From the sequence record NZ_CP085281.1: a DNA stretch of 64,000 bases; one strand, 5' to 3'. Below are positions 780 to 61,745 of the stretch, in pieces (position 1 is the stretch's first letter; each line of letters opens with the position of its first letter). The DNA comes from a plasmid. The translations under genes and the position numbers were made by a program. The notes under the pieces were generated by a model. The model did not search any database, was not told the DNA's origin, and was given only the letters and a program-made list of their open reading frames with translations.

Positions 780-899
780 CAGTGGTTCCCCTCCGCTAGG
801 CCGTCCCGCAACGTGGTCCCCGGTATCGACGTCGTGTCGATACCGGCCCCCCGCCGCTGCTGTCGGTCCGCAGTCATGATCGTGTGGTGTGGTTCCCGG

Positions 900-1202
900 T
901 TACAGGAACTGGGTCGCGTTGGCGTCGTCGACCATCGAGTAGTTGGCGTCGGCGACGCCGAGCGTTCCGGCGAAGCGGGCCAACTCCAAGAACCCCATGG
1001 CCGAGGTGCCGAGCATGTCCGCCGAGTGTGCGCTGGTGTTGGCGGTGGCCAGGGCTGATGCCTCGTCGGTGCCCGCCGGTGCCGGCGCCATGATGACCGG
1101 GGCGCCGCCGTCGATGACGGCGGCCGTGGTGGCCACGTTGCTGGCCGTTTCGGCGACGCTGGACAACATGACCGGTGATACGACGTTGGTGATCACTAGC
1201 AA
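900..1202 (-). CDS. PE family protein (~100 aa)
   Basis: 100-aa ORF. APVIMAPAPAGTDEASALATANTSAHSADMLG and the C-terminal YSMVDDANA fit the PE domain consensus. Its position between eccC and PPE is typical of ESX loci. Confidence 0.8.
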   Translation of the reverse strand: MLVITNVVSPVMLSSVAETASNVATTAAVIDGGAPVIMAPAPAGTDEASALATANTSAHSADMLGTSAMGFLELARFAGTLGVADANYSMVDDANATQFL

Positions 1203-1342
1203 ACCTCATTCCCCTTGAGCCAAGGATACCGATCCCACGGCAATGTTACCTGTGATGGTAAAACTCGTCACCAGCATACCGCTACCGCAGAGGGGCGGTG
1301 TCGCACTTTTTCCTGCTCCAGGCAGTCCCAGCAGGCGCCGCA

Positions 1343-5521: not shown

Positions 5522-5522
5522 C

Positions 5523-7106: not shown

Positions 7107-7120
7107 AGCTGCTCTCCCGA

Positions 7121-22626: not shown

Positions 22627-22652
22627 GGCCGAAAGCTATCGGGGCCGGCGCA

Positions 22653-24833
22653 TTACGCCGCGCCACGCCACGCGGCTGGGCCAGTTAGTTCAGTCAACGG
22701 TGCGTGTTCGTGTGCGCAAGGAGTGCCGTAAGCGCGGCCGCAGACTCCCAATTCGACTTTCCTCTTGGTGAAATGTTGATGGAATTCATCGAGTTCATCT
22801 TCGGTTGGCTCTCGATACTCTTCGGATGGCCGCATGGATCGTCTGCTCTCAACGAACTTGCGGTAGTGGTTAATGACGTCTTCTTGGTAAATCGCTGTGT
22901 AGCCCTGGGTTGTGTTGATGTTCTCGTGACCCATGAGCCTCGCGAGGATGTGCACGGGCAGCCCGCCCGCCAGCGCGTCTGTCGCAAACACTCGCCTGAA
23001 GTCATGCGGCGACACCTTCAGGGGCTGTCCCGCCGCGTCGGTCAGGCCGCTCTGCGTGATCGCGTTCGAGATCATCGTGGTCATGTGGCCGGCGGACATT
23101 ATTCGCCTCTGGGTCCCGTGAACACGCTGGAATAGATAGGGCAACGGCACCGTGGTCACTCGCTCGTAGGGGTCGTACCGTGGAACGCAGGGAACTTGGG
23201 CGCTGCCAGCCCGCACACGGTGGCGGACTTGAGCCAGGACGTGGGCCAGTTCGGGGGGCACCATCAAGATGCGTTCCTTGTCGGACTTCGATGGGGCGAT
23301 CTGTAGTAGCGGGATCACGCCTCCGTCTGGTAGCCGATAGGTGAAGAGGGCAGTCGCGGTGATCTCCGAAAGTTCCTCCAGCCGAACTCCGGTGTAGTAG
23401 AACGTGTTGACGACCGCCCACGTCCAGAACGCAAGATCCTCGGATCGATCGAGGTCAACGCGTTCACCGGTATCAACTTTCGTGGCCCAGGTTCGTCCGG
23501 TCGGCTTATAGGACCCCATACTGGCGGAGGTGAGTTCAGTTCGTTCGTAGACATTGCCATCGAAGGTGAACCGCTGTCCCGCTGAATGTCTCAGCGCCAA
23601 CGCTAAGAAGTCGCGCTGGGACTGGCGCTGCTCATCGACGGCGGCGAGCAACTTCGGCATCGCAGGCAAGATCTGCCGGGTCTTTTGCTGCAGTCGGGCC
23701 TGGACCTGGCGCTTGTGCTTAGCCGCTCCGCGTGTGTCATCACGCGTGAGGAAACACGGTGCAGCCCAATGAGCCCATTCTGCATCTTGGGTAGCCCAGT
23801 GCGCGATGTCGAGGTAGAACGCTCTGACCGCGATGAGCATTGGGTACGGATCCGTGCCGGCTGCATGGTTAGCCTGCTTCCACCGACGACCGACCTCTGC
23901 CGGCAGAGCGAAGGTCGTTAGCCCAGGATTCTCGTCCTGGATCACTCTCCAAAACCGTCCGCAGAGCTTGTAGGCAAGTGAGCGCAGCGTCACGTAGTCC
24001 GTCACTGCCGCCCGCTCGTGGAGGTACCGGACGAAGACGTCCCGTTGTGGTTGCGCGATCTCGTAGAAGTCAACCATCTCTTCAACGGTGTACTGCCCTC
24101 GGCGGGCGATCTGGCGCAGCGGAAGAGCGTCCGCTGGGATGGCTCCGTGCATCTGAAGCAGATCCCAGGCGTAGTCGACCCCGTCGTTCTTCCCCTTCGT
24201 GCGCAGAATCTCCTGGCGGTAGAACAGGACATCATCTGCCTTCAGGTCTCGAATAGCCTTGCCGGTAAACAGCATCATCCGCTCAATCGCTGTCACAGCC
24301 TGGTGGAATTGCCTTGAAGCGGTTCCTTTTTCATCGTCGAAAGTCTTGGCCTTCGTATAGAAGTCGGGATCCCTGAGCTTGCCGGCGACTGTCGGTGCTG
24401 TGTTGAGCCTCGCGAACCTGAGCCAGTAGTAGGACGGTCGGATCGCGTCGAGGATCAGCAGTACGCCCACAGCAATCTTGGATTCCTGGGACTGTGAGAC
24501 GGCGGACAGATGGCTCCACGGATCTCCCAATCGCTGCATCCAGTCGGCGCCCTCCTCGTCACAGCCGGCATTAATCCACCGCTGCTGCCAAGAGTCTCCT
24601 TCGAAGGCCTGCAACGCAACGCAGAGTACGCGTAGCCCACGCTTCACCGTATCCGGGCGGGCCTTGTGAATCGGAAGCCGAAGAGCTTGCTCAGTTAGGC
24701 TGTCCACATCCAATCTGGTTGCAGGCCAGCTTGTGTCACGGCGAGGCGGCATGACGGCGGCTCTCATACCCAGTGGTACGGGGGCCTGCGGAGCGACGGG
24801 CCCGATCGCGGGTGCGGCGCCAAGTCTCGTCAC
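22653..24833 (-). pseudogene. Large tyrosine recombinase (TnpB-like) of element A, 3'-truncated by the insertion of element B
   Basis: Paralog of 18914-21376. Ends ...GTPCAHEHA then runs into element B sequence. The GTG start overlaps the tnpA(A) stop (caGTGA at 24830-24833). Confidence 0.65.
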
Positions 24834-26056
24834 TGTGCACCGCCGAACAGCTCGTCCATGTCGGCCGCCGAGTAATCCGCGGCGAGGGTGGCCGAGATTG
24901 CGCTGTCGATCTGCGGGCCCGCAGCCATTCGCTCTCTGAGCCACTTGTAGTGGGTTTGGGCATGAGTGAAGACGTCGGCTTCTCTAGGCCGGAGGTACTT
25001 CTGGGTCGTTACGAGCGACGAATGCCCGAGAATCGTCTGAATATCGGTGAGGGTCATGTTCGGGTCCTCCTGCATCCGCATCGCTGCGGTGTGGCGCAAA
25101 TCGTGCAGCGACCAGTTGGCCCCGAGTGTGTCGTTGACGCGACGCAGGACTGCTCTCAACGCGTCGTATCCGAGTGGTCGATAGGGTTTGCGAATGGTCC
25201 ACCACGCCATCGACTCTGGTTGCGTCAGTTCCGTCGGCAGGGTCGCTTGGTAGAGGTTGAACCAGACAAAAGCGTCAGGCGATGCTGGGATACGCTGCAA
25301 CACGCGAGTGCCCTTCCTCAGGACCGTTATCGTCTGCTCGTCCCACCGCACCATCCCGTTAGTGAGGCCGAGCAGCTCAGCTGGCCGGGCAGCACTTGAT
25401 AGGTAGAAGGCGATCAGCGCACGGTCGCGATGAGACGAGAGGCCACGAAACACATTGTCTACGTCTGCGTCTGAGAGATGGCGTGGTGTCAGTGATGGGG
25501 CCTTCTGGCGGTAGTCGCCGCGCCGCTCCGTAGGGAGCAGGCGCATCGGGTTGTGGTGAGCTGCATAGCGGTCACCGTCGCGAGCCACCCTGGTCGGCAC
25601 TGGGTTCACCAACGGCCCCGTTCGTGCGTGCACGTGGAAGTCGTAGAACGCGGCCACCACCGAAAGGTTGTGATTGATGGTGGTGGGCGCGTAACCGTCG
25701 CCCGCGTACCGTTTTCCCGTCACCGAATTCACAGAGCCTGGAATGTGCTTCTTGGCGACGCGACGACGGTACTTGACGGCAACCTTCATCCACGCCACGA
25801 AATCTCGCACATCCTCGCGTGTGGCCGCCGCCCATGGACGATCGATATGCCAGAGAAAGCGAAACCAGCGGAGTAGCGCCTGGGAATACGACTTCGCGCT
25901 TGAATTGCTGTTATCGCGAATTGTGAAATCGAGCAGGAACTCACTGCAGCATTGAACCGCATCGCCGGAACCGTCGAGCACAATCCAGGAAGGGATCCCG
26001 CTCGGCTGAGCGATTATTCGACCAATCCTACAAATTTCGTATATCGGCATTGGCAA
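24830..26056 (-). CDS. Small tyrosine recombinase (TnpA-like) of element A
   Basis: 408 aa. HDLRHTAAMRM ... GHSSLVTTQKY. Paralog of 21373-22626. Confidence 0.75.
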   Translation of the reverse strand: MPMPIYEICRIGRIIAQPSGIPSWIVLDGSGDAVQCCSEFLLDFTIRDNSNSSAKSYSQALLRWFRFLWHIDRPWAAATREDVRDFVAWMKVAVKYRRRVAKKHIPGSVNSVTGKRYAGDGYAPTTINHNLSVVAAFYDFHVHARTGPLVNPVPTRVARDGDRYAAHHNPMRLLPTERRGDYRQKAPSLTPRHLSDADVDNVFRGLSSHRDRALIAFYLSSAARPAELLGLTNGMVRWDEQTITVLRKGTRVLQRIPASPDAFVWFNLYQATLPTELTQPESMAWWTIRKPYRPLGYDALRAVLRRVNDTLGANWSLHDLRHTAAMRMQEDPNMTLTDIQTILGHSSLVTTQKYLRPREADVFTHAQTHYKWLRERMAAGPQIDSAISATLAADYSAADMDELFGGAQ

Positions 26057-37172: not shown

Positions 37173-38288
37173 TCAGCCGCTGTCGGCAGTGGGTCGGGGA
37201 AGCCGCACCTTGTCCCGCACGACGAGGGGTGCATCCTCGGGTCCGGCAATGTGGTCGGTGATCCAGATGGGTTTGTGCCGCTGGAGCGTCGGATACCACT
37301 GGCGACGCCAGTGACCGCGCACTATCCAGCGGTGGTTGTACGACCGGGATAGGGGCACCGCTGAGGCAGCTTGGCTGCGGCGGTAATACGACAGGTAGGT
37401 GACGGTCTCCCTGCGGTTGCGCCGATGCCCGTGCTGGTTCGGCGGGCCTGGCACGCGATGTACCTGATCGGTGGCGTCGATGAGGCGCTCCTGCTGAATC
37501 ATGTGCGCAAGGGACAGCAGGTACGTCAGCGCCGTAGCCGGGTCGCGGGGATCAGCGATGGAGGTACTTCGGTACACACCGTCGTCTAATCGTGGCGGGT
37601 TGTCCGTGCCGGGTTCGGACATCTGCGCCCGCGTGAAGGCCAAGCACGGCATTCGATCTGGGCCCCATGCCTTCTTGGGCTTGGGCGCAAGCCATAGCTG
37701 CATATCCGCCGACTCGGTCAGCGAGGCTTCGATACTGCCACTGTCGGTCACGGCCCACAGGAGAATGCGCACATGCCCTGGCTGCCACAGGTATGCGATC
37801 CCGGTCGGTGAGGGCAGTTCGTCCGGAGTTGCCGACATGGTGAGAAGCTCCGGCGCGGCGCCGGCGGCCACCAGCGCCGAAACCTCTTCGGTGCAGAAAT
37901 AGGCGAACCTGTCTTGCGTAGCAGCCTTCGTCAGCTGCATGTAATTCCAGACCGGCACGGTGCGTTGAACCCAGTCCTCGAAGAGGACGCCATCGGCCAA
38001 GTAGCTCGACCTCATGTGCCCGATAAGCTCCGGCAAAGTCAGCCCTGTTTCCTCCATGTAGCGCAGCAGCTGTGGCCCGGGCGGAAACCCCGCAGCCGCT
38101 GCTTCGACTTGCTCCTCCACCAACGCCATCCAGCTGCCGTCAACACGGACGCTGACTGCTCGCTCCTGAAGCGCATCCAGCAGAACAGGCAGCTGTCCCG
38201 GCGACATGCGCGGGATCAACATGGAAGCTCGCCGTAGCAGTGCAGTGTCGATCCCCTTGCGCCCCTTGGAGTTAGTCACCGCACCCAC
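37173..38288 (-). CDS. conserved hypothetical protein, paralog 1 (C-terminal HRW-VRGHWRRQWYP motif)
   Basis: Shares FCTEE..ALV, LPSP.G.A.L, TYLSY and SYNHRWIVRGHWRRQWYPTLQRHKPIWITDHIAGP with 40116-41252. Confidence 0.45.
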   Translation of the reverse strand: MGAVTNSKGRKGIDTALLRRASMLIPRMSPGQLPVLLDALQERAVSVRVDGSWMALVEEQVEAAAAGFPPGPQLLRYMEETGLTLPELIGHMRSSYLADGVLFEDWVQRTVPVWNYMQLTKAATQDRFAYFCTEEVSALVAAGAAPELLTMSATPDELPSPTGIAYLWQPGHVRILLWAVTDSGSIEASLTESADMQLWLAPKPKKAWGPDRMPCLAFTRAQMSEPGTDNPPRLDDGVYRSTSIADPRDPATALTYLLSLAHMIQQERLIDATDQVHRVPGPPNQHGHRRNRRETVTYLSYYRRSQAASAVPLSRSYNHRWIVRGHWRRQWYPTLQRHKPIWITDHIAGPEDAPLVVRDKVRLPRPTADSG

Positions 38289-38344
38289 CGAGGCGCTCCG
38301 CAGTCATCCAACTTCCCCAGTGCCGCGAGCTATCGTGTTTTCGG

Positions 38345-39520
38345 TTAGCATCCATCGGGCACCCGCGCCACCCGGCGTCCGACGTCACGCACCAGTTCCG
38401 GCGACACCATGAAACCCTGGAACGCGACCGGTTCAGCCCCCGGTCTCGACACATACAACCCGCTGCCTCGCGCCGACGGCACCCGTACTGCATTGCTGCC
38501 GTCCATGGGATCTGATCCCATCGTGATGCGGTACGTGGTGTGGTTGGAGATTCGCCCAGCCGTGATGGGATCGAGGACCTGGTTGGCAATCAGGACGTGG
38601 ATGCCTAGTGATCGGCCCTTGCGCAACACGGATTCCACCGCGTAACCCAAGCCCGGATCTTGCCGCGTCAACTCTCCGAGTTCACTGAGCACCAACACGG
38701 TGTAGGGCAACGGCGGCAGGGCTCCGTCGACTACCTGGCTCCGGACATAGTGATAGTCCCCGATGGTCCCCGCCTGCGGGGCGGCGCGGACGGCGCGGAC
38801 GCTGCCCGCGCCGAAGTGCTCGTCGAGGTTCTCCACGCTCGGGTTGGTAGTCGGCTCATCCTCGACGGCCGTGTCCGCTTCCTCGATGCCCTCTGAGCCC
38901 GAGTCTGCATCGTCGGCGGGCAAGTCATCGACGCCGTCTGCGATCCAGTCCTCGTCGGACAGTGCATCCACCCGCCGCAGCGTCTCGATGCGGTCAGCAA
39001 TCAGCGCTGACAACAGCTCCGTGTAGTCAGAACCGTCCGGGACGGTGGTCACGTGCGGATAGTCGGCGAAGTTGGTGAAAGCCGTTTCCCCTTTGCCGCT
39101 GATCAACATCACCTGAAGGTTGTCGGGCGAATTCTGGGCACAGAGACCGAACAAGAGTGATTGCAGGACAGTCGTTTTCCCAGTACCGGTTGTACCCGAG
39201 AGAACACCGTGAGGGCCGTCGCCGCCCGAGAAGCCTTCTCGGAGATCCAGCCACACAGGGGACCCATCGACTTTCAGCCCGATCGGCGTGCGTAGGTGTG
39301 CGTTTGTCTCCTCCGGTAGTGGGCGAGCCCATAACGTCGTCACATCGGGAATGTCGCCCTGTCCGAGCCCGAGGAGCGAAAGTAACCGTTGCTGCGACGC
39401 GGTCGGGGACGCACCGTCCTTGTCAGCGTCGTCGAGTTGGCGCCGTGCGCGCATGTAAGACTCACCGGTAGCCGCTTGTTGGCGTCGTACCTTCTTTTTA
39501 CGCGAGGAATCACTAGACAT
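38345..39520 (-). CDS. single-domain FtsK/SpoIIIE-like ATPase
   Basis: Walker A GTTGTGKTTVLQSL. The Walker B region and an acidic insert are present. About 390 aa, one ATPase domain only. Confidence 0.7.
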   Translation of the reverse strand: MSSDSSRKKKVRRQQAATGESYMRARRQLDDADKDGASPTASQQRLLSLLGLGQGDIPDVTTLWARPLPEETNAHLRTPIGLKVDGSPVWLDLREGFSGGDGPHGVLSGTTGTGKTTVLQSLLFGLCAQNSPDNLQVMLISGKGETAFTNFADYPHVTTVPDGSDYTELLSALIADRIETLRRVDALSDEDWIADGVDDLPADDADSGSEGIEEADTAVEDEPTTNPSVENLDEHFGAGSVRAVRAAPQAGTIGDYHYVRSQVVDGALPPLPYTVLVLSELGELTRQDPGLGYAVESVLRKGRSLGIHVLIANQVLDPITAGRISNHTTYRITMGSDPMDGSNAVRVPSARGSGLYVSRPGAEPVAFQGFMVSPELVRDVGRRVARVPDGC

Positions 39521-39742
39521 CGAGAAACACACATCCCGTCCAAAGTCCTTGCCGCAGCAGCCCACATCTGCAATGCGACAGATCTCTGTCAGGGTGTGCG
39601 CGGAGCCCCGTGGACCTTGTCCTGGTCGATTGCGACCGATCGATGTGGGCGATCAATCCACTGCCAGGAGTCGCGCCGCCGCGGCGACGGCGCTGGCCCT
39701 AATATACCGCCCTCTCCGGCGACCGAGGGTCGCGCGCGGGGC

Positions 39743-40081
39743 CTATTTCAGCCCGGTCGCGGCGTCCGCGGTGGGACTCGCCGAACGAGTGGCGGTTGCG
39801 GTCTTGCTGACCTGGATGTCGAACTTCGTCCCGTCCTTGAAGTCGATCACCAGGCCGCCGTCGTAGTGCTTGATGATGTGCTCGGCAACGACCCGGATGG
39901 CCATGTCGGTGCAGTCTTCGTGATGCAGTCGCGACAGCCAGTCGTCCATGCCGGGGGCCAGCTCGCCGTCGTCGGGATCGATGATGTCTTCGCCGGCGAG
40001 AAATTCGGTGTGGGCCGGGTTGAGGAGTCCTACGTTCAGCTTCCCGGAGAATGGCCCTTCTTGAATTCCGAAGTACATCAT
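39743..40081 (-). CDS. hypothetical protein
   Basis: ORF only. Confidence 0.3.
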   Translation of the reverse strand: MMYFGIQEGPFSGKLNVGLLNPAHTEFLAGEDIIDPDDGELAPGMDDWLSRLHHEDCTDMAIRVVAEHIIKHYDGGLVIDFKDGTKFDIQVSKTATATRSASPTADAATGLK

Positions 40082-40115
40082 CGGTGGTTCTCCTTCATAG
40101 CGGGTGGGTGCTTGT

Positions 40116-41252
40116 TTATTCGGCGTCAGTGTCGTCTGTGGCGGCGGGTGGGCGGGCGATCAGAACTTTGTCGCGATGCTCGATCGGGAGGTCTGCCGGG
40201 CCCGCGATGTAGTCGGTGATCCAGATCGGCACGTGCCGATTGAGGCTGGGGTACCACTGGCGTCGCCAGTGCCCGCGAACCACCCACCGGTGCGAGTAGG
40301 ACCGGCTGGAGCCGTCCTCGCGCCGGCGGCCTTGATGTTCGGTGGCGTTGTAGCTCAGGTAGGTGATGGAGTCGGTGCGGGTCCGGCGGCGACCACGGCG
40401 ATCCTTGCCCGGCGATCGCACCGTCTGCACTTCGGCGCTGGCCAGCTTCGCCTGTCGCGCCAGATGACTGAGCGCGAACAAGGTGTTCATCGCATTGTCC
40501 GGTCGGATCTGTGAGTACTGCCCGTCGGCGCCGAACGGCTTGAACACCTCCACCGCGCTCGGCGGCTGATCGGTCATCGGTGGGCTCAGCCTGGCCTGCT
40601 CGAACGGCTGCGGCACATGCATGTCCGGATCGGTGAACCGATCAGACACGATGCGCCGAAGTCCCTCCACCTCAGCGAGATTGGCCGACACCATGCCCTC
40701 CGACGTCGTCACCCACCGCAACAACAGGGGTTCGGCCCTGTCATACAGGAACGCCACACCGGCCGGGCTCGGCAGATCCGCCAACGACAACGCGCTCTCT
40801 GCAACCTGCGCCGTTGCCGCGCTGCGGACGAGCGCCGTCATCTCCTCGGTACAGAAGATCGCGTGCCGAGTCTGGACACTGCCGCTGGCAAGCACCTGAC
40901 CGAAGTAGATCGCCCGAGTCGAGGAATAGTCCAGTCCTTCCTCGACGTTGTGCGTCCGCCACCGCTCCGCCATCTCCGCCGGCGTGGTGCCCAGGCGCTC
41001 CGCAGTCGAGGCGAGCCGCGCCGAGGGCTCGTCGACCTCGCCGCGGGCGTACGCCCGCCAGTCCTCATTGAGCAGATACCGCGGCTCGACGACCTTGATC
41101 GATTGGGCGGCGTGTGCGGTGAGCGCATCAAGCAGAACGGGCATGCTCTTGGGCGTCAGCGCATCCAGGACGAGATCAGCACGCCTCATCAAGGTGAGGT
41201 AGTCCGCATCCAGCACTACGCCCTTACTCAAAGCGTGGTCCCCCGCTTCCAA
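40116..41252 (-). CDS. conserved hypothetical protein, paralog 2 (C-terminal HRW-VRGHWRRQWYP motif)
   Basis: SYSHRWVVRGHWRRQWYPSLNRHVPIWITDYIAGP. Paralog of 37173-38288. Confidence 0.5.
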   Translation of the reverse strand: MEAGDHALSKGVVLDADYLTLMRRADLVLDALTPKSMPVLLDALTAHAAQSIKVVEPRYLLNEDWRAYARGEVDEPSARLASTAERLGTTPAEMAERWRTHNVEEGLDYSSTRAIYFGQVLASGSVQTRHAIFCTEEMTALVRSAATAQVAESALSLADLPSPAGVAFLYDRAEPLLLRWVTTSEGMVSANLAEVEGLRRIVSDRFTDPDMHVPQPFEQARLSPPMTDQPPSAVEVFKPFGADGQYSQIRPDNAMNTLFALSHLARQAKLASAEVQTVRSPGKDRRGRRRTRTDSITYLSYNATEHQGRRREDGSSRSYSHRWVVRGHWRRQWYPSLNRHVPIWITDYIAGPADLPIEHRDKVLIARPPAATDDTDAE

Positions 41253-41512: not shown

Positions 41513-41896
41513 TCAGTTCGCTACGACCATCACTTGGCATTGGATGCCTGCTGCGGCGCTGAGGGAGGCGTCGGCGGTCACGACCGTGCAGTCCAGCGCT
41601 TCGGCCAGCGCGACGTAGCTGGCCGCGCCGGCGTCGAGGACCTCGCGCAGTTCCCACACCCGCGGGAGCAGTCCCAGCTCGCCGACCCGCCGGACTCCCA
41701 GGCCACGCCAGGCGTTCACGGCCGCCTGCGCCGTCTTCTCGTCGAGCTGCCCGAGCGCCAGGCAGCGCCGCAAGCCGTTGACCACCTCGATGTCGATCAC
41801 CTCCGGGGCCCATACCCGGTCACTGGCCAAGACCTTGCGGGCCTGCCCGGCATTGAGCAGCCCAGCCAGCGCGGCGGAGGCGTCCACGACGATCAC
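41513..41896 (-). CDS. vapC: PIN-domain toxin VapC
   Basis: VIVVDASAALAGLL at the N-terminus with conserved acidic residues. A GTG start overlaps the vapB stop (GTGA). Confidence 0.6.
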   Translation of the reverse strand: MIVVDASAALAGLLNAGQARKVLASDRVWAPEVIDIEVVNGLRRCLALGQLDEKTAQAAVNAWRGLGVRRVGELGLLPRVWELREVLDAGAASYVALAEALDCTVVTADASLSAAAGIQCQVMVVAN

Positions 41897-42114
41897 TTTC
41901 CTGAACGTCCCTCGTCGACCGCGGCGACGATGTCGGTGGTGTCCACGCTGAGATCGGGTAATGCTGCCAGGAGGTCGGCGTTGTCGGCGCGCCGTGCCGC
42001 TTCGGCCAGCTCCCGCATCGCGTAGGTGTTCACCGAGACACGCTCGCGGGCGGCGAGCCGTTCGAGCCGTTCGATCACGTCGGCTGGCACGTTCCGTAGG
42101 TACACCGTTCCCAT
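41893..42114 (-). CDS. vapB: VapB-type antitoxin
   Basis: 73-aa MGTVYLRNVPADVIERLERLAARERVSVN RHH/AbrB-like N-terminus, upstream of the PIN gene. Confidence 0.55.
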   Translation of the reverse strand: MGTVYLRNVPADVIERLERLAARERVSVNTYAMRELAEAARRADNADLLAALPDLSVDTTDIVAAVDEGRSGK

Positions 42115-42148: not shown

Positions 42149-43219
42149 CTATGCGCCTGCCTGGAGCGCCACCACCGACTCCGTATCGGCAAGCCCATGC
42201 GCGTACGCGTAACGATCCGCCTTCTCCAACAACCGCCGGATCCGCCCCGCCATCGCATCCTTCGACAACGGCGGCACCGCCAACCGCCCCAACTCCTCCA
42301 ACGTCACCGACCGATGCTCCAGACGCAGCCGCCCCGCCTCAACCAGGTCCTCCGGGACGCCATCGCCCAGGATCTCCAGCGCACGCTCCACCCGCGCCGC
42401 CGCCGTCGCAGCAGCTGCCGCCGCCCGATGGGTGTTCTGCTCCCGGAAACCTTGGGCCGCACGCCCAGCGGGTGTGACCTGATGGCGGCCACACCGCTCG
42501 ACCCACCGCGCTGCCGACTCCACCGCACCCATCGCCACGAGCAGCGCCGCGACCGCCTCGTCATCGGACACCACCACCAGCACCGCGCCCCGCACCTCGC
42601 GGACTTTCGCCGCGACGCCCAGGCGCCGCGCGGCACCGGCCAAAGCGATGGCAGCCTCCAACGCCGGCGCCTTCACCTGCAATGCCCGTGCCCGTCCCGG
42701 CTTACTGAGTTCCCCGCTGGCCATGAACGCTCCTCGCCATACCGCTCGCATGGCGTCGCGATCGCCGGCGACCACAGACGGCGGAAGACCGCGCACACGC
42801 TGGCCACCTCGATCGACCAGACCGACCCGCCGGGCGAATTCCTCGACGTCGTGGCGGATCTGCACTTCATGGCAGCGAGGGCGGTACTGGCGCACCTTCG
42901 ACGCCGAGACAACGCTGCGGCCCGGCTTCACCCTCAGCAACACCCTGGGCTCGTAAAGGTCCTTGATCATGACGTGCAGCCGGCGCGCGGCCTCGACGCT
43001 GTCCAGCTCGGCGGACACGATCGACTGTCCGTCGACGCAATCCAGGACGCCGGCGAACCGCATCACGGTGGCGACCTCGACGCGCCGCAGGGCCGGTGAC
43101 TGCACCGGCACGCCGGACAACTCGAGCTTCACTTCACTGGCCACCTGCTTGAGCCTTCCCACTCGGCGATCACTCCAGCCTAAGGCGGGTTTCGGGCCCA
43201 AACCGTTGCCGAACGACAT
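42149..43219 (-). CDS. whiA: WhiA-family DNA-binding protein (paralog-like copy)
   Basis: AAATAAARVERALEILGDGVPEDLVEAGRLRLEHRSVTLEELGRLAVPPLSKDAMAGRIRRLL matches the WhiA C-terminal HTH region nearly position by position. The LAGLIDADG-like core is also conserved. Confidence 0.8.
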   Translation of the reverse strand: MSFGNGLGPKPALGWSDRRVGRLKQVASEVKLELSGVPVQSPALRRVEVATVMRFAGVLDCVDGQSIVSAELDSVEAARRLHVMIKDLYEPRVLLRVKPGRSVVSASKVRQYRPRCHEVQIRHDVEEFARRVGLVDRGGQRVRGLPPSVVAGDRDAMRAVWRGAFMASGELSKPGRARALQVKAPALEAAIALAGAARRLGVAAKVREVRGAVLVVVSDDEAVAALLVAMGAVESAARWVERCGRHQVTPAGRAAQGFREQNTHRAAAAAATAAARVERALEILGDGVPEDLVEAGRLRLEHRSVTLEELGRLAVPPLSKDAMAGRIRRLLEKADRYAYAHGLADTESVVALQAGA

Positions 43220-43259: not shown

Positions 43260-43856
43260 CTATTGCGACAGCAGATTTGCCCACCAAGCGATGCCGGGGT
43301 TCAGACGGACTGCCACATCCTGCACGTGCCGCTTGTCGCCTTCATAGAACCCCGGAACACTGGCGCCATTGGGCAGCGCACCCGAGGACATCCATTCGTT
43401 GAAGGTGTCGAACATCGCAGTCATGCTCAAGAACACCGGGGCTGGAATCTCACCCAGGAAATCGTCGATGACTCGACGGTTGCCGGTCTCGTCTGCCTGG
43501 GTCTCAACCAGGTAGGCATTGCCGTCATCTTGCAGCAACGGGAACGCGTCCTGCCACGGCGGTTCCGCGTAGTCGTTCGACCGCCGATAAGCCCACTCTT
43601 GAAGGGCATCCTCGAAGCTCAACAGCCAGTAAATTCCGTAGAACCTCGGCTGATCGGGACCGTATTGGTAGCCCGAGACCAGGTTGAACGCCCCGTAGAA
43701 CTCGCGGATATCCGATGGTGGTTGCGGCAGCCCGGCCTGACCAAGCAGGTCATCCATTCGCTTCACCGAAACGCCCGGAAGCAGGTACCGGGTGAACTCA
43801 TCGCCCGCTGCCGATAGCCGCTCGAACAGCCGGGTCGCCGACTCAACTACTGACAC
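43260..43856 (-). CDS. SMI1/KNR4 (SUKH)-like protein
   Basis: The pattern F..DDGNAYLVE...G.V.D.....P.......FL and size ~200 aa fit SUKH-1 immunity proteins. Weak. Confidence 0.35.
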   Translation of the reverse strand: MSVVESATRLFERLSAAGDEFTRYLLPGVSVKRMDDLLGQAGLPQPPSDIREFYGAFNLVSGYQYGPDQPRFYGIYWLLSFEDALQEWAYRRSNDYAEPPWQDAFPLLQDDGNAYLVETQADETGNRRVIDDFLGEIPAPVFLSMTAMFDTFNEWMSSGALPNGASVPGFYEGDKRHVQDVAVRLNPGIAWWANLLSQ

Positions 43857-43952: not shown

Positions 43953-44921
43953 TCAGCGGCGTTCACGGGCAAGGTCTCCGTCGGTGAACCGTGCGATGGC
44001 TTCCCGCACGGCCGCGCCCATGGCGGGGCTGCCGGTATGTCCGGAGTCCTCGATCACCACCAGCTCGGCGGCCGGCCACGCCTGGGCCAGCTCCCACGCT
44101 GAAATCAGCGGACAGGACAGGTCCAGACGACCGTGAATGAGAATCCCAGCGATTCCGGCGAGCCCTCCTGCGTCGCGCAGCAGCTGATCCTCGGTCAGCC
44201 ATCCGTAGTGAGCGTAGAAGTGTGTGCAGATCCGCACGAACGCCAACTTCTCCTCCGCGGGCTTGGCGCTGAACTGGCCTGGCCGCCCGTGTGTTTCGTG
44301 CGCGATCGCCGCGTCCTCCCACAGGCCCCACTCATGGGCGGCGTGGTCACGCACGCTTCGGTGGGGGTGTTCCATGAGCTGCCGGTAGGCCTCGACGAGA
44401 TTGCCACCTCGCAGATGTGTGGGCACCGCGGCCCGGAACCGGTCCCACTGCTCGGGAAGCAGAATCCGCAATCCGCCGTACAGCCAATCGATCTCGCGAC
44501 GACGAGTTGTCGAGATGCTGATCAGGATGATGCCTTCGACCCGCTCTGGATGGCGCTGCGCGTACGCCAGGATGAGCGTCGAAGCCCAGGAGCCGCCGTA
44601 CAGCAACCACCGCTCCACGCCCAGGGCCTGCCGTAGCTTCTCCATGTCGCCCAGCAGGTGTTCCGTGGTGTTGACGCTCATATCCGTGGACGGGTCCGCG
44701 GCGCTCGGCCTGCTGTCCCCGCAGCCACGCTGATCGAACGACACAATGCGAAAGACGCTGTGGTCGAACGCTTTATGGGCGGTGCGGGAGCGGCCACTAC
44801 CGGGCCCGCCGTGAACGAGCAGCACGGTGCGACCCACCGGATTGCCGCGCTCCTCCCAGAACATCTGGTTGCCGTCGCCGACGTCGAGCCAGTCACCCAT
44901 CAGCGACGGCTCCCGGCTCAC
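43953..44921 (-). CDS. pip: prolyl aminopeptidase (alpha/beta hydrolase)
   Basis: LLVHGGPGSG ... GGSWAS nucleophile. Typical Pip length (322 aa). Confidence 0.8.
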   Translation of the reverse strand: MSREPSLMGDWLDVGDGNQMFWEERGNPVGRTVLLVHGGPGSGRSRTAHKAFDHSVFRIVSFDQRGCGDSRPSAADPSTDMSVNTTEHLLGDMEKLRQALGVERWLLYGGSWASTLILAYAQRHPERVEGIILISISTTRRREIDWLYGGLRILLPEQWDRFRAAVPTHLRGGNLVEAYRQLMEHPHRSVRDHAAHEWGLWEDAAIAHETHGRPGQFSAKPAEEKLAFVRICTHFYAHYGWLTEDQLLRDAGGLAGIAGILIHGRLDLSCPLISAWELAQAWPAAELVVIEDSGHTGSPAMGAAVREAIARFTDGDLARERR

Positions 44922-45895
44922 CGTGAGGCGGGCGGGGCGACGACGGTCGTCGTCGGAGCAACCGGGGCCGGGCCCGCCGGGGCAGCGCTACCAGCCGCGG
45001 GGGTGCCGGAGCTGGCGGCCGGAGCCGCGGCGGTCGGGGCCGGCGTCGGGCTCACTTCAGTACCTGACGGTGTGCTCGCCCCCGTAGACGGGACCGGTGT
45101 TCCCGTGCTGCCTGGCACCGGCGTGCCTGTGCTGCCAGGCACCGGCGTGCCTTGACTTCCTGGGGCGACCGGGGTGCCTGCACTACCTGGTTCGGCTGGG
45201 GTTCCGGCGCTACCTGGGGAAACGGGTGTGCCCTGGCTGCCCGGAACGGGCGCGCCGGCGCTGGCCGGCGCTGCCACAGGAGTGGCGCCCGCCGGCGCGG
45301 CCTCAGCCGCGGCCGTAGGAGCCGCCCCGCCTGTTGCTGAACTCGCCGACGATCCCGAACCGGACGACGCAGTCCGCGGCGGTGCGGGCGGCGGCTGCAC
45401 CCACACCGCGAGATCCGGGCCACCTGCGTTGTAGACCACGCTGTCGGGGACATCACCGGTGACGTCGAAGTACACCTTGCCCGAGGTCTGCTGTCCCTGG
45501 GCCAGCGCAGCCGGGTTGACCCCTTGCGGTGTCGCCACACCGAAGAGCACCCGGTAGGTCTGACCACTGCGGGCCCGGGCATTGAGATTGGACACCACGG
45601 GCTGCACGGTGCCCCGCACTGCTACGTCGGAAGCCGTTGCCTCCCAGAGCGTTCCGGCCACCGCGTACGGGATGGCGTCCGCGCTCGGCTTGAGGCCCGT
45701 GACCGTCCACGCCTGCACCACATCGCCATTGACCAGCTGGGCTGGGCCCCCCAGCGTATGGATCACCGAGTCCTCAGCCGAGGCCACGGGCGCGAACACC
45801 GCCCCAACGCTGACTACCGCGGCGGCGGCGATCACGGCTCTCGAAGCAGCACTCAACGGTTCATCTCCTTGATCGACGAAGCGGCTATCAACCAA
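44918..45895 (-). CDS. secreted protein with possible MPT63-like (DUF1942-like) domain and C-terminal Pro/Thr/Gly repeat
   Basis: Signal-like AVIAAAAVVSVGAVFAPVASA. The MPT63/DUF1942-like assignment is low confidence and rests only on the overall architecture. The C-terminal GSQGTPVPGSTGTPVPGSTGTPVP repeats are evident. Confidence 0.5.
   Translation of the reverse strand: MVDSRFVDQGDEPLSAASRAVIAAAAVVSVGAVFAPVASAEDSVIHTLGGPAQLVNGDVVQAWTVTGLKPSADAIPYAVAGTLWEATASDVAVRGTVQPVVSNLNARARSGQTYRVLFGVATPQGVNPAALAQGQQTSGKVYFDVTGDVPDSVVYNAGGPDLAVWVQPPPAPPRTASSGSGSSASSATGGAAPTAAAEAAPAGATPVAAPASAGAPVPGSQGTPVSPGSAGTPAEPGSAGTPVAPGSQGTPVPGSTGTPVPGSTGTPVPSTGASTPSGTEVSPTPAPTAAAPAASSGTPAAGSAAPAGPAPVAPTTTVVAPPASR
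45093..45270. repeat. degenerate ~21-24 nt tandem repeat inside 44918-45895 (encodes G-T-P-V-P-G-S heptads)
   Basis: accggcgtgcctgtgctgccaggc repeated at least 6 times with drift. Confidence 0.5.
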
Positions 45896-50552: not shown

Positions 50553-50736
50553 GTCCGTGGCCATGAAAAAGTACCCACTGGTGGCCAAGTGGAGGTATCC
50601 GCTGGTGGCCGGATAAAAGTACCCACCCCGTGTTCGTCGTGTCGATCAGGAACTGCGGGCCCCGGTGGTGACGGTGAAGGTGCCAACCACTCATCGTCAC
50701 CACCGGGGAGTTCCATTGAAGTCTGCGAGGGACCGC

Positions 50737-52224
50737 ATGGACATCATTTCTGCTTATCAACAAGTCGGGTCATACCGCGGCGCCGCGCAGCTGTGCGGCA
50801 CCACCCATAGGACCGTCAAGAAAGTCGTCGAGAAATTCGAAGCCGGTGAGAGCGCACCGCCGCGGGTCGAGCGGGCCCACAATTACGATGCGGTGGCCGA
50901 TCTGGTCGCCGAGCGTGTCGAGAAGTCGGCGGGTCGGATGTCGGCGAAGCGGATGTTGCCGATCGCGAAGGCCGCCGGTTACGACGGGTCGGCACGCAAC
51001 TTCCGTCGCCTCGTTGCTGAGGCGAAGGTGTTGTGGCGCAACGAACATCACCGGGGACGTCGCCCGGCGGTGTGGTCACCGGGTGAGTATCTGGTGATCG
51101 ACTGGGCCCAAGCCGCACCCGGGTTGTTCCTGTTCTGCGCAGTGCTGGCGTTCTCCCGGTGGCGCTTCGTCGCGTTCGCCACCGACCAGAAGGCGTCCAC
51201 GACGTTGGCGTTGATCGCCGAAGCGATGGCCGGGATAGGTGGTGTCCCGGCCCGGGTGCTGGCCGACCGGATGGCCTGTCTGAAGGGCGGCGTGGTCGCC
51301 AACGTGGTGATCCCTACCGCCGAATACGTCCGGCTGGCAGGTCATTACGGTTTCGCGCCGGACTTCTGCCATGCATCCGACCCTAAATCGAAGGGCATCG
51401 TGGAGAACTTGTGCGGCTACGCCCAACGCGACCTCGCCGTCCCGCTGCTCACCGACGCCGCCATCGCCGGGGTGCCGGTTGATCTGCGTGCTGCCAACGT
51501 TGCGGCCAGGGCGTGGTGTCTGGAGGTCAATGCCGCGGTGCATTCGGAGATCTGTGCGGTCCCCGATGAGCAACTGCTGATCGAACGGGAACTCCTGCAA
51601 CCGTTGCCGTCGCTGCAACTTCGAATCGGGGCACCGTCGGTGATCCGCAAGGTCGACCGGCTGTCGTGTGTCCGGTATGCCTCGGCCCGCTACTCGGTGC
51701 CCACCCGACTGATCGGGACCAGCGTGGCCGTCGTCGTCGATCACGGCGCGCTGTGCATCGTGGAGCCCGCGACTGGGGTGATCGTGGCTGAGCACGAACT
51801 GGGTGCCCCAGGCAGCGCATCAGTCCTCGACGATCACTACGACGGTCCCCGCCCGGAACCTAGCCGCGGACCACGACCCAAAACTCATGCTGAGCAACAG
51901 TTCTGCACACTCGGCGAGGATGCTCAAGCATTCCTGGTCGGGGCCGCCGCGATCGGCAACACTCGGCTGGGCTCCGAACTGGAAGTCCTACTGGCGTTGG
52001 GCGCCGCCCACGGCACCGACGCCTTGGTCGGCGCGCTTCGCCGGGCGGTCGCGTTCCGGAGGTTCCGCGCGATCGACGTGCGGTCCATCCTGGCCGCCGG
52101 CGCCGGAACGCCGCAGCCCCGCCCCGCCGGGGATGCGTTGATCCTGGACCTCCCAGTCGCCCCGACCCGATCCCTGGCTGCCTACACGGTCAACCCGGCC
52201 GCAGACGGTGGTGCCACGTCATGA
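50737..52224 (+). CDS. istA: IS21 transposase IstA
   Basis: N-terminal HTH then DDE integrase core. Stop overlaps the istB start. Confidence 0.85.
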   Translation: MDIISAYQQVGSYRGAAQLCGTTHRTVKKVVEKFEAGESAPPRVERAHNYDAVADLVAERVEKSAGRMSAKRMLPIAKAAGYDGSARNFRRLVAEAKVLWRNEHHRGRRPAVWSPGEYLVIDWAQAAPGLFLFCAVLAFSRWRFVAFATDQKASTTLALIAEAMAGIGGVPARVLADRMACLKGGVVANVVIPTAEYVRLAGHYGFAPDFCHASDPKSKGIVENLCGYAQRDLAVPLLTDAAIAGVPVDLRAANVAARAWCLEVNAAVHSEICAVPDEQLLIERELLQPLPSLQLRIGAPSVIRKVDRLSCVRYASARYSVPTRLIGTSVAVVVDHGALCIVEPATGVIVAEHELGAPGSASVLDDHYDGPRPEPSRGPRPKTHAEQQFCTLGEDAQAFLVGAAAIGNTRLGSELEVLLALGAAHGTDALVGALRRAVAFRRFRAIDVRSILAAGAGTPQPRPAGDALILDLPVAPTRSLAAYTVNPAADGGATS

Positions 52225-53030
52225 ACGGCACGCCAGCCAAGGCAACCAAACCCGTTGCACCACTGTCCACTCCGCAATTCGCCGCTGATCTCGACGCCGG
52301 GCTGCGGCGGCTCAAGCTCGCCGCGATCCGGCGCACCGCCCCCGAAGTCCTAATCACCGCCAAGACCCAGCGCTGGACCCCCGAAGAAGTGCTACGGACC
52401 CTCGTCGAGACCGAACTGGCGGCACGGGATGCCTCCAACGTCGTCAACCGGCTCAAGGCTGCCGGGTTCCCGGTCACCAAGACCTTGGAGTCCTTCGACG
52501 TGGCCGCATCGTCGATTCAGCCCAAGGTGTTCGACTACCTGTCGAGCCTGGAATGGGTTCGCACACAACAGAATCTGGCGATCATCGGACCGGCTGGGAC
52601 CGGCAAGTCCCACACCCTGATCGGACTGGGGGTCGCTGCGATTCATGCTGGGCACAAGGTCCGGTACTTCACCGCCGCCGACCTCGTCGAAACCCTCTAC
52701 CGCGGCTTGGCCGACAACACCGTCGGCAAGATCATCGAATCCCTGCTCCGTGTCGATCTGATCATCCTCGACGAACTGGGCTTCGCCCCACTCGACGACA
52801 CCGGCACCCAGCTGCTGTTCCGCCTCGTCGCCGGCGCCTACGAACGCCGCTCCCTGGCCATCGGCTCGCACTGGCCCTTCCAAGAGTGGGGTCGATTCCT
52901 GCCCGAGCAGACCACCGCCGTCAGCATCTTGGACCGGCTCCTGCATCACGCCACCGTCGTCATCACCGACGGCCAGTCCTACCGAATGAAGGACGCCCAA
53001 CACCGGAAGGAGAACCCCCAACCAATCTAA
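52221..53030 (+). CDS. istB: IS21 helper ATPase IstB
   Basis: GPAGTGKSHTLIGLG Walker A and DELGF Walker B. Confidence 0.85.
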   Translation: MNGTPAKATKPVAPLSTPQFAADLDAGLRRLKLAAIRRTAPEVLITAKTQRWTPEEVLRTLVETELAARDASNVVNRLKAAGFPVTKTLESFDVAASSIQPKVFDYLSSLEWVRTQQNLAIIGPAGTGKSHTLIGLGVAAIHAGHKVRYFTAADLVETLYRGLADNTVGKIIESLLRVDLIILDELGFAPLDDTGTQLLFRLVAGAYERRSLAIGSHWPFQEWGRFLPEQTTAVSILDRLLHHATVVITDGQSYRMKDAQHRKENPQPI

Positions 53031-53096
53031 GAATCACTGCACGGGGTGGGTACTTTTATCCGGCCACCAGCGGGTACTTCTACTTGGCCATTGACA

Positions 53097-53562
53097 ATTG
53101 CCATGCACCGGCATTCCAGACGTGATGGAGGGCAACGGTGTGGTCGATTTGCACGTCGGCCAGGTCGACTCGTTCACCGCTGTAGGGATCGTTGAGCCAG
53201 CCCGCGATGACTTTGCAGTTGTGGGTGCCGTCCTTGTAGGTAACGTCGTTGAGATCCCTGGCCAAAATTCTCGAGCGTGTGTCGCAACCCGATCTGTCGC
53301 TGGGGTCGTTCCACGCGGGCCCGAACACACAGCCCTGACCCTTCTTGCAGCTGCGCTCGTAGCCGGGTACCGAGTCGATGTGGTCGACGACCTTGACTTG
53401 ATCGAGCAGGGAGGTCAAGTCGGCCGAGGTGGCCGCGGGCGCGGCGATCGCCACCGTGTCCCCGCGGTATCCGAAGTCGACGAGTGTGGGATGCAGCCAG
53501 GCAGCGATCGCGACGGCGGCGGCGCCGGCGATCGCGATGGCGCGGACTCGTCTAACGCTCAT
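53097..53562 (-). pseudogene. DUF1524 (HNH-like) gene, 5' fragment with signal peptide
   Basis: VQIDHTVALHHVWNAGAWQ His-Me finger region. The frame runs into the IS21 end. Confidence 0.65.
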
Positions 53563-59765: not shown

Positions 59766-61745
59766 TTAAGCAGCGGCGGCGTGCTTGGGTGCGGAGTCGC
59801 TGGCTGCGGCGTGCCGCGGCGAGGTCGCCGAGGCGTGCTTGGGCGTCTTCGCGGTGGCGGCGGAGGTGCCGTCCGACGGTCCGTTGTTGGGTGACGTCGA
59901 GGCGGTCTTACCGGGTGCGCTGCCGCTGGTCTTGTCGCCGTTGGTGTTCTTGGTGCCGGAGGGGCGTGGTTTCTTCGGCGCGGTGACGTTGTCGGTCTTG
60001 TCCGGATTGGAGGCCCCGTTCGCGGCGCCGGCTGAGGTCGTGGTGTCGTCCTTGTCGGCGGTTGAGGTGGTGGTGCGGTCCTTGGTGCTCGCCGATGCGC
60101 CCTTGCTGTCGTCGGCTGCCTCGGTCTTGGCGTCGGTGGCCGTCGACGCTGCGGTGCTCGCGGTCGCATCGGTGGCAGCTGCTGCTTCGGCGGCGGGGGT
60201 GGGGTTCGGGCTCTCCTCGGTCGCCGGGTTCACCGTGGGCTCGGCTGCCTCGCTGGCGGTGTCCTCCGCCGGGTCGGTTGGCTCGGCGGCGTTGGCGGTC
60301 TTCGGTTCTGCCGCTGCTGTTTTCGGGCCGCGTCCGGTGGTGGTGTTCGCCGCGGTGGTGTCGGTGCTCGGCGTGGTGTCGGCGGTGAGGCTGAGGGTGA
60401 CCGTTTTGTGGGTGGCCGCCGGGGCGGCGGTCGCGGTGAGGCTGCCGGTGATGGCCGAGCCGAAGTCCAGGGCCGCGGCGATGGTGCGCAGTCCTGCGGC
60501 GGTGGTGGTGGCGGCCGCTTTGACGAGGAGGTTGACCGTGGTGGCCATCGCGTGCGGGATGCCTGTGACGAGGGATGGCAGCCCGGCGGCTTGGAGGATT
60601 CCGCTGGCGGCGGTGGCCAGGCCGCTGGTGAAGGCGGTGAAGACGTTGGCGGCGGCGACGGTGATGTCGGCGCCGGCGGTGAAGGGTACCGACGCCAGGG
60701 AGCCGACGGTGTGTGCGGCGGTGGTGAGGGTGGAGGTCCCGGCGCCGACGAGGACGGAGATGGCGTGTGCGTAGGTGGCGGGGCTCAGCGGCGCGGTGCC
60801 GATGGTGTTGATGACCTTCTGGATTGCGCCGGGGTCGGTTCCGTTGCCGATCCAGGTGGCGACCGCGTCTGAGGCGCCGTCGGTGACGCGGTCGAGGATC
60901 GTGGTGGCGGCGTTGGTGATCGTGGTGGAGGCTCCGTTGACGGCTGCGACGGCGGCGGCCACGGGTGCGGAGACGATGCCCTGGACGGCGGTGATGAGGC
61001 CGTTGACGAGGTCGATCCCGGTGAGTTTCTTGCTGGCGTCGAGCAGGCCGTTGAAGGTGTCGAGGGCGTTGGAGACCTGGCGGGTGACGCCGGTGACGAC
61101 GGTGTTGGTGACGGTCAGGACGTTGGCGCCGAGGTGGTTGACGGTGCCGATGCCCTGGGTGAGGGCCAGTCCGGCGATGTCGATCGGGGCGTTGATGAGG
61201 CCGGTGTAGCTCGGGAGGGCGAGCGGGTTGTTGATGACGGTGGCCACGGCGTTCAAGGCGGTGCCGAGGGAGCCGGTGAGTGTGGAGGTCAGCAGGTCGG
61301 CGAGCTGTCCGGTGGTCAGGACGATGGAGCCGTTGACGTCGTCGATGGACTTCGAGAGGTCTGAAAGTCCGTTTCCTGCTGACGCTTTGAGCGTTTTGAG
61401 GATGGCGGTGAGGGTCTTGTTGTCGGTGGCGGCGATGAGACCGTTCCACAGGCTGTCGTTGAGGGTGACCGCCGAGGTCAGCGCCTGGGTCAGGGTTTGG
61501 CCTGGGGCGCCGACCAATCCGGTGACGGTCGTCGAGGCCGATGCCATCGCCGATTCGAGATTGTCGACGAGCTTGGCGATGTCGGCCGGGTTGATGACGG
61601 CGGTCAGCTGCAGTCGGGGGGTGGAGATGTGCGGGACGGTGAGGTCGCGGGCTGCCATCGGCAGCGGTGTCATGAAGGGGGTGAAGGCGAGGGCGGCGGC
61701 GGTGGTCAGCGCCAGGGCGGGGGTGGCGGTACGGGCGGCGGGCAT
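59766..61745 (-). CDS. secreted Ala/Thr/Gly-rich protein with low-complexity Thr/Ala/Lys C-terminal tail
   Basis: N-terminal signal peptide MPAARTATPALALTTAAALAFTPFMTPLPMAA. 659 aa with no catalytic motifs. Confidence 0.5.
   Translation of the reverse strand: MPAARTATPALALTTAAALAFTPFMTPLPMAARDLTVPHISTPRLQLTAVINPADIAKLVDNLESAMASASTTVTGLVGAPGQTLTQALTSAVTLNDSLWNGLIAATDNKTLTAILKTLKASAGNGLSDLSKSIDDVNGSIVLTTGQLADLLTSTLTGSLGTALNAVATVINNPLALPSYTGLINAPIDIAGLALTQGIGTVNHLGANVLTVTNTVVTGVTRQVSNALDTFNGLLDASKKLTGIDLVNGLITAVQGIVSAPVAAAVAAVNGASTTITNAATTILDRVTDGASDAVATWIGNGTDPGAIQKVINTIGTAPLSPATYAHAISVLVGAGTSTLTTAAHTVGSLASVPFTAGADITVAAANVFTAFTSGLATAASGILQAAGLPSLVTGIPHAMATTVNLLVKAAATTTAAGLRTIAAALDFGSAITGSLTATAAPAATHKTVTLSLTADTTPSTDTTAANTTTGRGPKTAAAEPKTANAAEPTDPAEDTASEAAEPTVNPATEESPNPTPAAEAAAATDATASTAASTATDAKTEAADDSKGASASTKDRTTTSTADKDDTTTSAGAANGASNPDKTDNVTAPKKPRPSGTKNTNGDKTSGSAPGKTASTSPNNGPSDGTSAATAKTPKHASATSPRHAAASDSAPKHAAAA

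Follow-up and report, generated by a model that had tools for sequence, protein, structure and literature searches.

A diverged WhiA paralog on a large ESX-carrying plasmid of Mycobacterium avium

WhiA is usually viewed as a single-copy, syntenic and essential division regulator in mycobacteria and other Gram-positive bacteria. What, then, is a gene for a WhiA-like protein doing on a plasmid? The question is raised by a 64,000-nucleotide stretch of plasmid DNA (record NZ_CP085281.1; hereafter the window), in which a first-pass annotation, made from the sequence alone, described a minus-strand open reading frame (ORF) at 42149..43219 (-) whose 356-residue product resembles actinobacterial WhiA and might be an extra or mobile copy. 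Here we follow up this ORF by domain, structure, residue-level, phylogenetic and gene-neighbourhood comparisons. The explanation that we favour, and hold to be probable without being secure, is that it encodes a functional plasmid-backbone WhiA paralog that regulates transcription, carried on a large ESX-bearing plasmid of Mycobacterium avium in addition to the whiA of the host.

A WhiA-family protein with a revised start

The ORF is real. It comprises 356 codons from ATG 43219, and the GC content at its three codon positions (0.77/0.51/0.81) is usual for real genes in this 66% GC window. Family membership was judged with the models TIGR00647 and PF10298, PF14527 and PF02650. In Pfam, the ORF matches WhiA_N (42.9 bits, 5e-11; gathering cut-off (GA) 23.4), LAGLIDADG_WhiA (56.1 bits, 4e-15; GA 23.2) and HTH_WhiA (48.7 bits, 1e-12; GA 27), and against the NCBIfam WhiA equivalog TIGR00647 it scores 194.1 bits for a cut-off of 44.1, compared with 357 bits for the chromosomal WhiA of M. 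avium. A phmmer search of PDB sequences returned Streptomyces venezuelae WhiA (8dy9_I, the WhiA chain in the cryo-electron microscopy (cryo-EM) complex of RNA polymerase (RNAP), WhiA and WhiB) over residues 2–324, with E=9e-75. The AlphaFold2 model of the plasmid protein has a mean predicted local distance difference test score (pLDDT) of 87.8, falling below 50 at residues 224–234 in the long helix. When this model was searched with Foldseek, the top matches were 8dy9_I, 8dy7_I (template modelling (TM) score of 0.88 for the N-terminal domain) and Thermotoga WhiA 3hyi, with homing endonucleases ranking lower. The C-terminal helix–turn–helix (HTH) block singled out in the first-pass annotation, ARVERALEILGD..VPE.L..AGRLR.EHR..LEELGRLA.PP.SKDA.AGRIRRLL, is present and aligns to the WhiA HTH without gaps. 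The plasmid ORF is a WhiA-family protein that has every part of the WhiA architecture, from a degenerate double LAGLIDADG domain through a long helix to a sigma-4-like HTH; the resemblance first noticed is upheld on every count, and it is the length of the product that we revise.

Translation very probably begins at GTG 43144, giving a protein of 331 residues, and not at ATG 43219. All relatives begin at the homologous GTG or TTG, the NCBI annotation likewise has 331 residues, the N terminus then lines up with residue 1–2 of S. venezuelae WhiA, and the 25-codon extension holds a GGGAAGG Shine–Dalgarno sequence (10 nt upstream) together with a conserved promoter-like block. The coding sequence accordingly occupies 42149..43144 (-), stop included, within the longest ORF that reaches back to ATG 43219. 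Guided by the Pfam matches, the PDB alignment and the TM score, we assign residues 1–213 (42506..43144 (-)) to the N-terminal double LAGLIDADG-like domain, residues 214–258 (42371..42505 (-)) to the long-helix linker, which is the most diverged part of the protein, and residues 259–310 (42215..42370 (-)) to the sigma-4-like HTH.

A protein built on a homing-endonuclease fold (the N-terminal domain matches I-DmoI, PI-SceI and I-SceI) and found in a mobile context could in principle be an active LAGLIDADG endonuclease, or another selfish mobile gene, and not a regulator. We regard this as highly improbable. In the AlphaFold2 model analysed by DSSP, the two LAGLIDADG-like helices end in FAGV and MASG, without an acidic residue at their C termini, so that endonuclease activity is not expected; other WhiA proteins likewise lack the catalytic residues (PMC3781837). 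In addition, the closest structures are by far those of WhiA, and the gene occurs in differing insertion contexts with no recognisable interrupted host gene.

An extra copy on a mycobacterial plasmid

The window protein is 100% identical to WP_342314816.1/WZT99951.1, recorded as 'DNA-binding protein WhiA (plasmid) [Mycobacterium avium subsp. hominissuis]' on a 215,734-bp contig. The content of the window fits a large mycobacterial plasmid, with an ESX type VII secretion locus, insertion sequence (IS) elements, tyrosine recombinases, a P450, an FtsK/SpoIIIE ATPase and an MPT63-family gene. A megablast search with the 12 kb around whiA against PLSDB gave only patchy matches of 78–86%, all to plasmids of Mycobacteriaceae, from which it follows that this plasmid family is not represented in PLSDB.

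The canonical chromosomal neighbourhood is missing. When rapZ, yvcK, gap, pgk and tpiA of Tsukamurella were used as tblastn queries, none was found in the 64-kb window or beside any plasmid-type whiA. In the positive controls (Tsukamurella NZ_LR134447.1, MT835916.1 and 13 Microbacteriaceae genomes), queries were found beside whiA each time; in the 13 Microbacteriaceae these were rapZ, pgk, tpiA and usually gap, and yvcK was not detected. An M. avium chromosome (CP042454) holds a canonical whiA in the order uvrC–rapZ–CofD/yvcK–whiA, and its product is 51% identical to the window protein. Because the identical protein is labelled as plasmid-encoded, the surroundings hold ESX and IS elements and the canonical neighbourhood is absent, the plasmid gene is supported as an extra, mobile WhiA copy, additional to the essential chromosomal whiA of the host. 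The first-pass proposal of such a copy therefore stands, with an ESX-P locus and IS elements around the gene and no rapZ/yvcK neighbourhood beyond the local view in which it was made.

An origin in the canonical operon is ruled out by the lack of its genes across all 64 kb while the controls were positive. To the broader idea that the ORF is a chromosomal whiA in a misleading local view, or else a decaying pseudogene, we give next to no weight: besides the missing neighbours and the plasmid label, the reading frame is intact, dN/dS is ~0.15 and the model is predicted with the high pLDDT given above.

Two database labels encountered in these searches are misleading. Tsukamurella 'plasmid 5' (NZ_LR134447.1) holds the canonical chromosomal whiA locus. 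One case for phage-borne WhiA was rejected, as the record 'UNVERIFIED: Bacteriophage sp.' (MT835916.1) carries rapZ–yvcK–whiA–gap–pgk–tpiA and is a chromosomal actinobacterial fragment; the other WhiA matches in the phage collection are partial, at 27%, in unannotated Enterococcus and Listeria records. WhiA had no match in PADLOC or PHROGs. In the control chromosomes of Aquiluna, Leucobacter and Cryobacterium, rapZ ends directly before whiA and tblastn found no yvcK between the two within the 6-kb flanks, a departure from the usual rapZ–yvcK–whiA order.

How far has the plasmid copy moved from its chromosomal counterparts? Its relatives form a small clade (P0001–P0013; 58–100% identity to the window protein) drawn from M. 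avium, Mycolicibacterium sp. Y3 and metagenomic Mycobacterium contigs of 138–244 kb. Chromosomal WhiA proteins are only ~50% identical to it (49–52% over the full length for S. venezuelae and M. tuberculosis Rv1423). For comparison, chromosomal WhiA is 73% identical between Streptomyces and M. avium, and the mycobacterial chromosomal copies are 90–97% identical among themselves. A neighbour-joining tree with Enterococcus as outgroup (200 bootstraps) recovers the plasmid clade as monophyletic with 100% bootstrap on a long stem, separate from the chromosomal proteins. Both this clade and five further WhiAs from plasmids or accessory DNA fall within the Mycobacteriales (96%). The mutual grouping of the mobile lineages has bootstraps of only 21–40% and may be due to long-branch attraction.

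Between clade members, close pairs have Nei–Gojobori dN/dS values of 0.13–0.17, and no domain reaches 0.25; plasmid whiA is thus selectively maintained and not decaying. Plasmid backbones from M. avium, Mycolicibacterium sp. Y3 and metagenomes still carry the gene, whether they are collinear or rearranged. The GTDB species representatives yielded only one more clade member, and 55 blocks of the sequence collection index one clade variant. Mycolicibacterium sp. Y3 (GCA_051188035.1) has two clade members, at loci that we refer to as L001 (89% identity to the window protein) and L011 (58%), which lie on separate large contigs of 223,647 and 244,228 bp; two WhiA-bearing replicons thus seem to coexist in one isolate.

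These data bear on the simplest account of an extra copy, a redundant spare captured from a chromosome, with the function of the host gene or no distinct role. The protein passes the WhiA equivalog threshold, is named simply WhiA by PGAP and nests within the Mycobacteriales WhiAs in the tree, all of which would fit such a spare. Its 51% identity to the M. avium chromosomal protein is, however, far below the 73% that separates the chromosomal proteins of Streptomyces and Mycobacterium, and half of the 143 positions that are invariant in chromosomal WhiAs are changed in the clade. The clade has moreover diversified to 58% identity under purifying selection, which argues for an old, distinct and selected role. 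We consider a spare copy quite unlikely, and the depth and pattern of the divergence make it less likely than the competitive antagonist discussed below.

Conserved and altered functional surfaces

To relate this divergence to function, residues are numbered as in S. venezuelae WhiA, with roles taken from cryo-EM and mutagenesis (PMC10243135). In that structure, R266, L274, K287, R293 and R295 contact the GACAC motif; R174, R177, R181 and R185 form an N-terminal basic patch that clasps the DNA backbone; R221, L222, F225 and N229 are long-helix DNA contacts; K21, Q98 and Q115 are β′-dock contacts; and 15 WhiA residues contact WhiB. A quadruple arginine-to-glutamate patch mutant and a triple dock mutant are null in Streptomyces (PMC10243135).

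The DNA-reading residues are intact. The HTH equivalents of R266, L274, K287, R293 and R295 (5/5 GACAC contacts) show no substitution in the window protein or in any of the 34 aligned sequences. Among 18 WhiAs from actinobacterial chromosomes, 143 alignment columns do not vary; the plasmid clade keeps only 72 of these throughout and departs from 31 in all of its members. Chromosomally invariant positions are retained most often in the HTH (26/29), at an intermediate rate in N-terminal subdomains A (18/27) and B (34/48) and least often in the long helix (16/34), where the window protein is 49% identical to the M. avium chromosomal protein, compared with 96% between the Streptomyces and M. avium chromosomal proteins. 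The five other mobile WhiA lineages likewise show their highest retention in the HTH and their lowest in the long helix.

At each of the three features of an activation-competent WhiA (basic patch, long-helix contacts and β′-dock), the plasmid protein departs from the chromosomal state. In the basic patch, R174 and R177 are kept, and R181L and R185S occur in 10/10 clade members at positions that are invariant Arg in the 18 chromosomal WhiAs. In the long helix, R221A and L222A are clade-wide and accompanied by R210C, R216T and R231H, with F225 and N229 kept. In the β′-dock, Q98R is clade-wide at a position that is invariant in the 18 chromosomal proteins; the clade has Q115S/A, to which we attach less weight as Q115 varies among chromosomal WhiAs too, and K21R is found in the mycobacterial chromosomal proteins as well. 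Compared with S. venezuelae WhiA, the N-terminal domain is also enlarged by an insertion of 9 residues.

On this basis, the plasmid protein would be a monomeric, sequence-specific binder of GACAC-type sites and act as a transcription regulator. The replacement of the long helix, half of the basic patch and the β′-dock residues means that it probably has a different promoter geometry or partner dependence from host WhiA; the altered clamp and dock surfaces would modify its cooperation with WhiB2, sigmaA and RNAP, and it would use the WhiB2 and sigmaA of the host, or none. We suggest that it works on behalf of the plasmid, by controlling plasmid genes or else through the host WhiA/WhiB2 promoters for division and replication.

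The same pattern of an intact reading head and replaced surfaces also suits the main rival to such a regulator, a competitive antagonist, or dominant-negative mimic. Its HTH would occupy host GACAC sites while its altered surfaces block assembly with WhiB2, sigmaA and RNAP, slowing or reshaping host division and replication, for instance when the plasmid establishes itself or is transferred. Here, the residues replaced include some of those altered in the activation-abolishing Streptomyces mutants (the R174/177/181/185 patch and the K21/Q98/Q115 dock; PMC10243135), and the pathway that would be hit is an essential one, whiA and whiB2 being essential division regulators in mycobacteria (PMC13473873). 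Antagonism is made plausible by a precedent on a mobile element: the WhiB of phage TM4 competes with the WhiB2 of the host and reproduces the phenotype of WhiB2 depletion (PMC6282962). Yet only 2/4 basic-patch residues are lost and K21R is shared with mycobacterial chromosomes; and a constitutive block of an essential regulator should cost the host, although the gene persists stably and under purifying selection. We therefore rate antagonism as unlikely, if the strongest of the alternatives.

The region directly upstream offers some indication of how the gene itself is expressed. A stretch of ~70 nt 5′ of plasmid whiA (43145..43215 (-)) is conserved in the window and at three related loci on other plasmids (L001, L012 and L010). 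It includes a TANNNT-type −10-like hexamer (TAGGCT, 43177–43182), a CCGAAAC block and the Shine–Dalgarno GGGAAGG (43154–43160), and its conservation across the four plasmids suggests that plasmid whiA probably has its own promoter. A scan of the surroundings for consensus promoters and terminators found nothing above chance.

Several observations weigh against the regulator that we propose. The upstream region of whiA contains neither GACAC nor GACACGCC, the 8-mer motif of M. tuberculosis WhiA (PMC13473873), and with no GACAC there, canonical WhiA-type autoregulation is not evident. Neither motif is enriched in the window: GACAC occurs 168 times against 191 expected from shuffling, and GACACGCC 3 times against 6.9 expected, counts that we rate as uninformative for a plasmid regulon. 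A search of all ORFs for a WhiB-like (Wbl) partner, by phmmer with a WhiB1 sequence and by a regular expression for the Wbl cysteines and GVWGG, found no such gene in the 64-kb window (of a ~216-kb plasmid) or in the flanks of 13 loci, with one marginal 52-residue ORF at L010. Finally, the loss of R181, R185 and β′-dock residues might abolish activation altogether.

A bolder extension of the proposal is that a WhiA mimic on large mycobacterial conjugative plasmids reads host GACAC sites and, through its rewired surfaces, overrides or retunes the host WhiA/WhiB2 programme of division and replication, for instance during transfer or establishment, and that this is a recurrent strategy. Recurrence is suggested by at least six independent mobile WhiA lineages in which the HTH is conserved and the long helix relaxed. 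We offer this as a speculation whose chances are low. Were it true, the plasmid protein would be the WhiA counterpart of phage TM4 WhiB interference.

Neighbourhood of the gene and contents of the window

The first-pass annotation placed the gene between vapBC and a SUKH-like gene with IS elements nearby. All of these are there, the SUKH match lying below threshold, but the neighbours are not conserved partners of whiA. Directly downstream is the layout of a VapBC type II toxin–antitoxin system, a ribbon–helix–helix (RHH) gene followed by an overlapping PIN gene: a VapB-like antitoxin of 73 residues at 41893..42114 (-) (FitA-like RHH, 23.2 bits against a threshold of 27) and a PIN-domain VapC toxin of 127 residues at 41513..41896 (-) (31.5 bits, GA 23.6), which share a 4-nt GTGA overlap. 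A 74-residue gene, a 378-residue gene and a DUF7446 gene (39743..40081 (-)) follow. Upstream of whiA lie a 198-residue gene (43260..43856 (-)), an α/β-hydrolase gene and a DUF1942/MPT63-family gene (44918..45895 (-)). The first of these matches SMI1_KNR4 (SUKH-1, PF09346) with E=0.003 and 18.6 bits against a GA of 25.4, over profile positions 19–124 of 125, and among the relatives examined it is found in the window only. IS607, IS21 and IS200/IS605 elements lie 5–14 kb from whiA.

Gene order at loci L001 and L012 (89% WhiA identity) follows that of the window. At L010 (73%), the vapBC–74-residue module is 9 kb from whiA and a DUF7446 gene stands directly after whiA; the vapBC–74-residue–378-residue block of the window thus looks inserted. 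At L011, whiA abuts ESX genes for EccD, MycP and an FtsK-like ATPase. With their adjacency to whiA not conserved among related plasmids, vapBC and the SUKH-like gene were rejected as functional partners. The gene whiA looks like a backbone gene of the plasmid family whose order has been reshuffled by insertions.

Other features of the window are recorded here in their own right. The ESX/type VII locus at 1–8977 (-) encodes PPE, a probable PE, EccC (1392 residues), EccB and EccA, and is followed at 10821–12983 (-) by a 720-residue protein with a C-terminal ADP-ribosyltransferase toxin domain, possibly a toxin delivered by the type VII system. Four adjacent Phage_integrase (tyrosine-recombinase) genes on the minus strand (24830–26056, 22653–24944, 21373–22626 and the ORF 18914–21886) occupy the segment of lowest GC (0.61); we take the layout at 18914–26056 to resemble a 'recombinase in trio' element plus one. 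The IS21 genes istA (50665–52224) and istB (52221–53030) abut a GmrSD_C-like gene (53080–53562) of 160 residues, compared with 232 in collinear L012, and IS21 therefore appears to have truncated it. At 37173–41252 (-), two paralogs of 378 and 371 residues (34% identical, with C termini matching phrog_15934) flank the DUF7446 gene and a small FtsK/SpoIIIE-family ATPase (38345–39565) that matches PADLOC mad8/SspH. At 59766–61745 (-), a 659-residue low-complexity ORF rich in Ala, Thr and Gly, with third-position GC of 0.90 and in a segment with a GC skew of +0.29, may encode a secreted or surface protein.

Significance and comparison with known systems

Plasmid whiA is already in databases: PGAP names the protein WhiA, and at least five Mycobacterium plasmids in PLSDB carry other WhiA lineages. 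A full-text literature search on WhiA and plasmids returned no paper describing or analysing a plasmid-borne WhiA, and a study of M. kansasii expressly notes that whiA paralogs are absent in that species. What is added here is a WhiA copy, diverged and selectively maintained, that large plasmids carry in the M. avium complex and in environmental mycobacteria. Its intact DNA-reading head combined with altered clamp and polymerase surfaces would make it a natural separation-of-function variant for WhiA/WhiB activation. Plasmids of clinically relevant non-tuberculous mycobacteria may in this way tune the growth, division or drug-tolerance programmes of their hosts; if only plasmid genes are regulated, plasmid WhiA is still a first candidate regulator for a poorly understood plasmid family.

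Set beside chromosomal actinobacterial WhiA (8DY7/8DY9; Rv1423), the plasmid paralog shares the three-domain architecture, the fold and the GACAC-reading HTH residues at 49–52% identity. It differs in being plasmid-borne, in lacking the uvrC–rapZ–yvcK–whiA–gap–pgk–tpiA synteny, in forming a separate long-branch clade and in its 9-residue N-terminal insertion, R181L/R185S, rewritten long helix and Q98R/Q115S. The other mobile WhiAs, on M. avium p1-JPH1, 322-kb and 437-kb plasmids of M. intracellulare and pMYCSM02 of Mycobacterium sp. JS623 and as an accessory copy in Tsukamurella, are similarly extra genes outside the canonical operon, and in them too the HTH is conserved and the long helix relaxed. 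The M. intracellulare 322-kb plasmid also has an MPT63-family gene two genes from its whiA, which belongs to a different lineage. Unlike the members of the window clade, however, these proteins share only 36–49% identity with the window protein and among themselves, their grouping is unsupported, and most of them keep the R181 and R185 that the window clade has lost.

More distant likenesses can also be drawn. Phage TM4 WhiB and the Wbl genes of plasmid SCP1 are also mobile copies of a regulator of the host WhiA/WhiB pathway, and TM4 WhiB can interfere with host septation (PMC6282962), but these are Wbl Fe–S proteins of a different family. Sfx, a homolog of H-NS, and RamAp, both from Enterobacteria, are described as plasmid-borne, diverged copies of chromosomal global regulators that take part in plasmid–host crosstalk; they belong to unrelated protein families and hosts, and offer a parallel only for the kind of role that a WhiA paralog on a mycobacterial plasmid may have.

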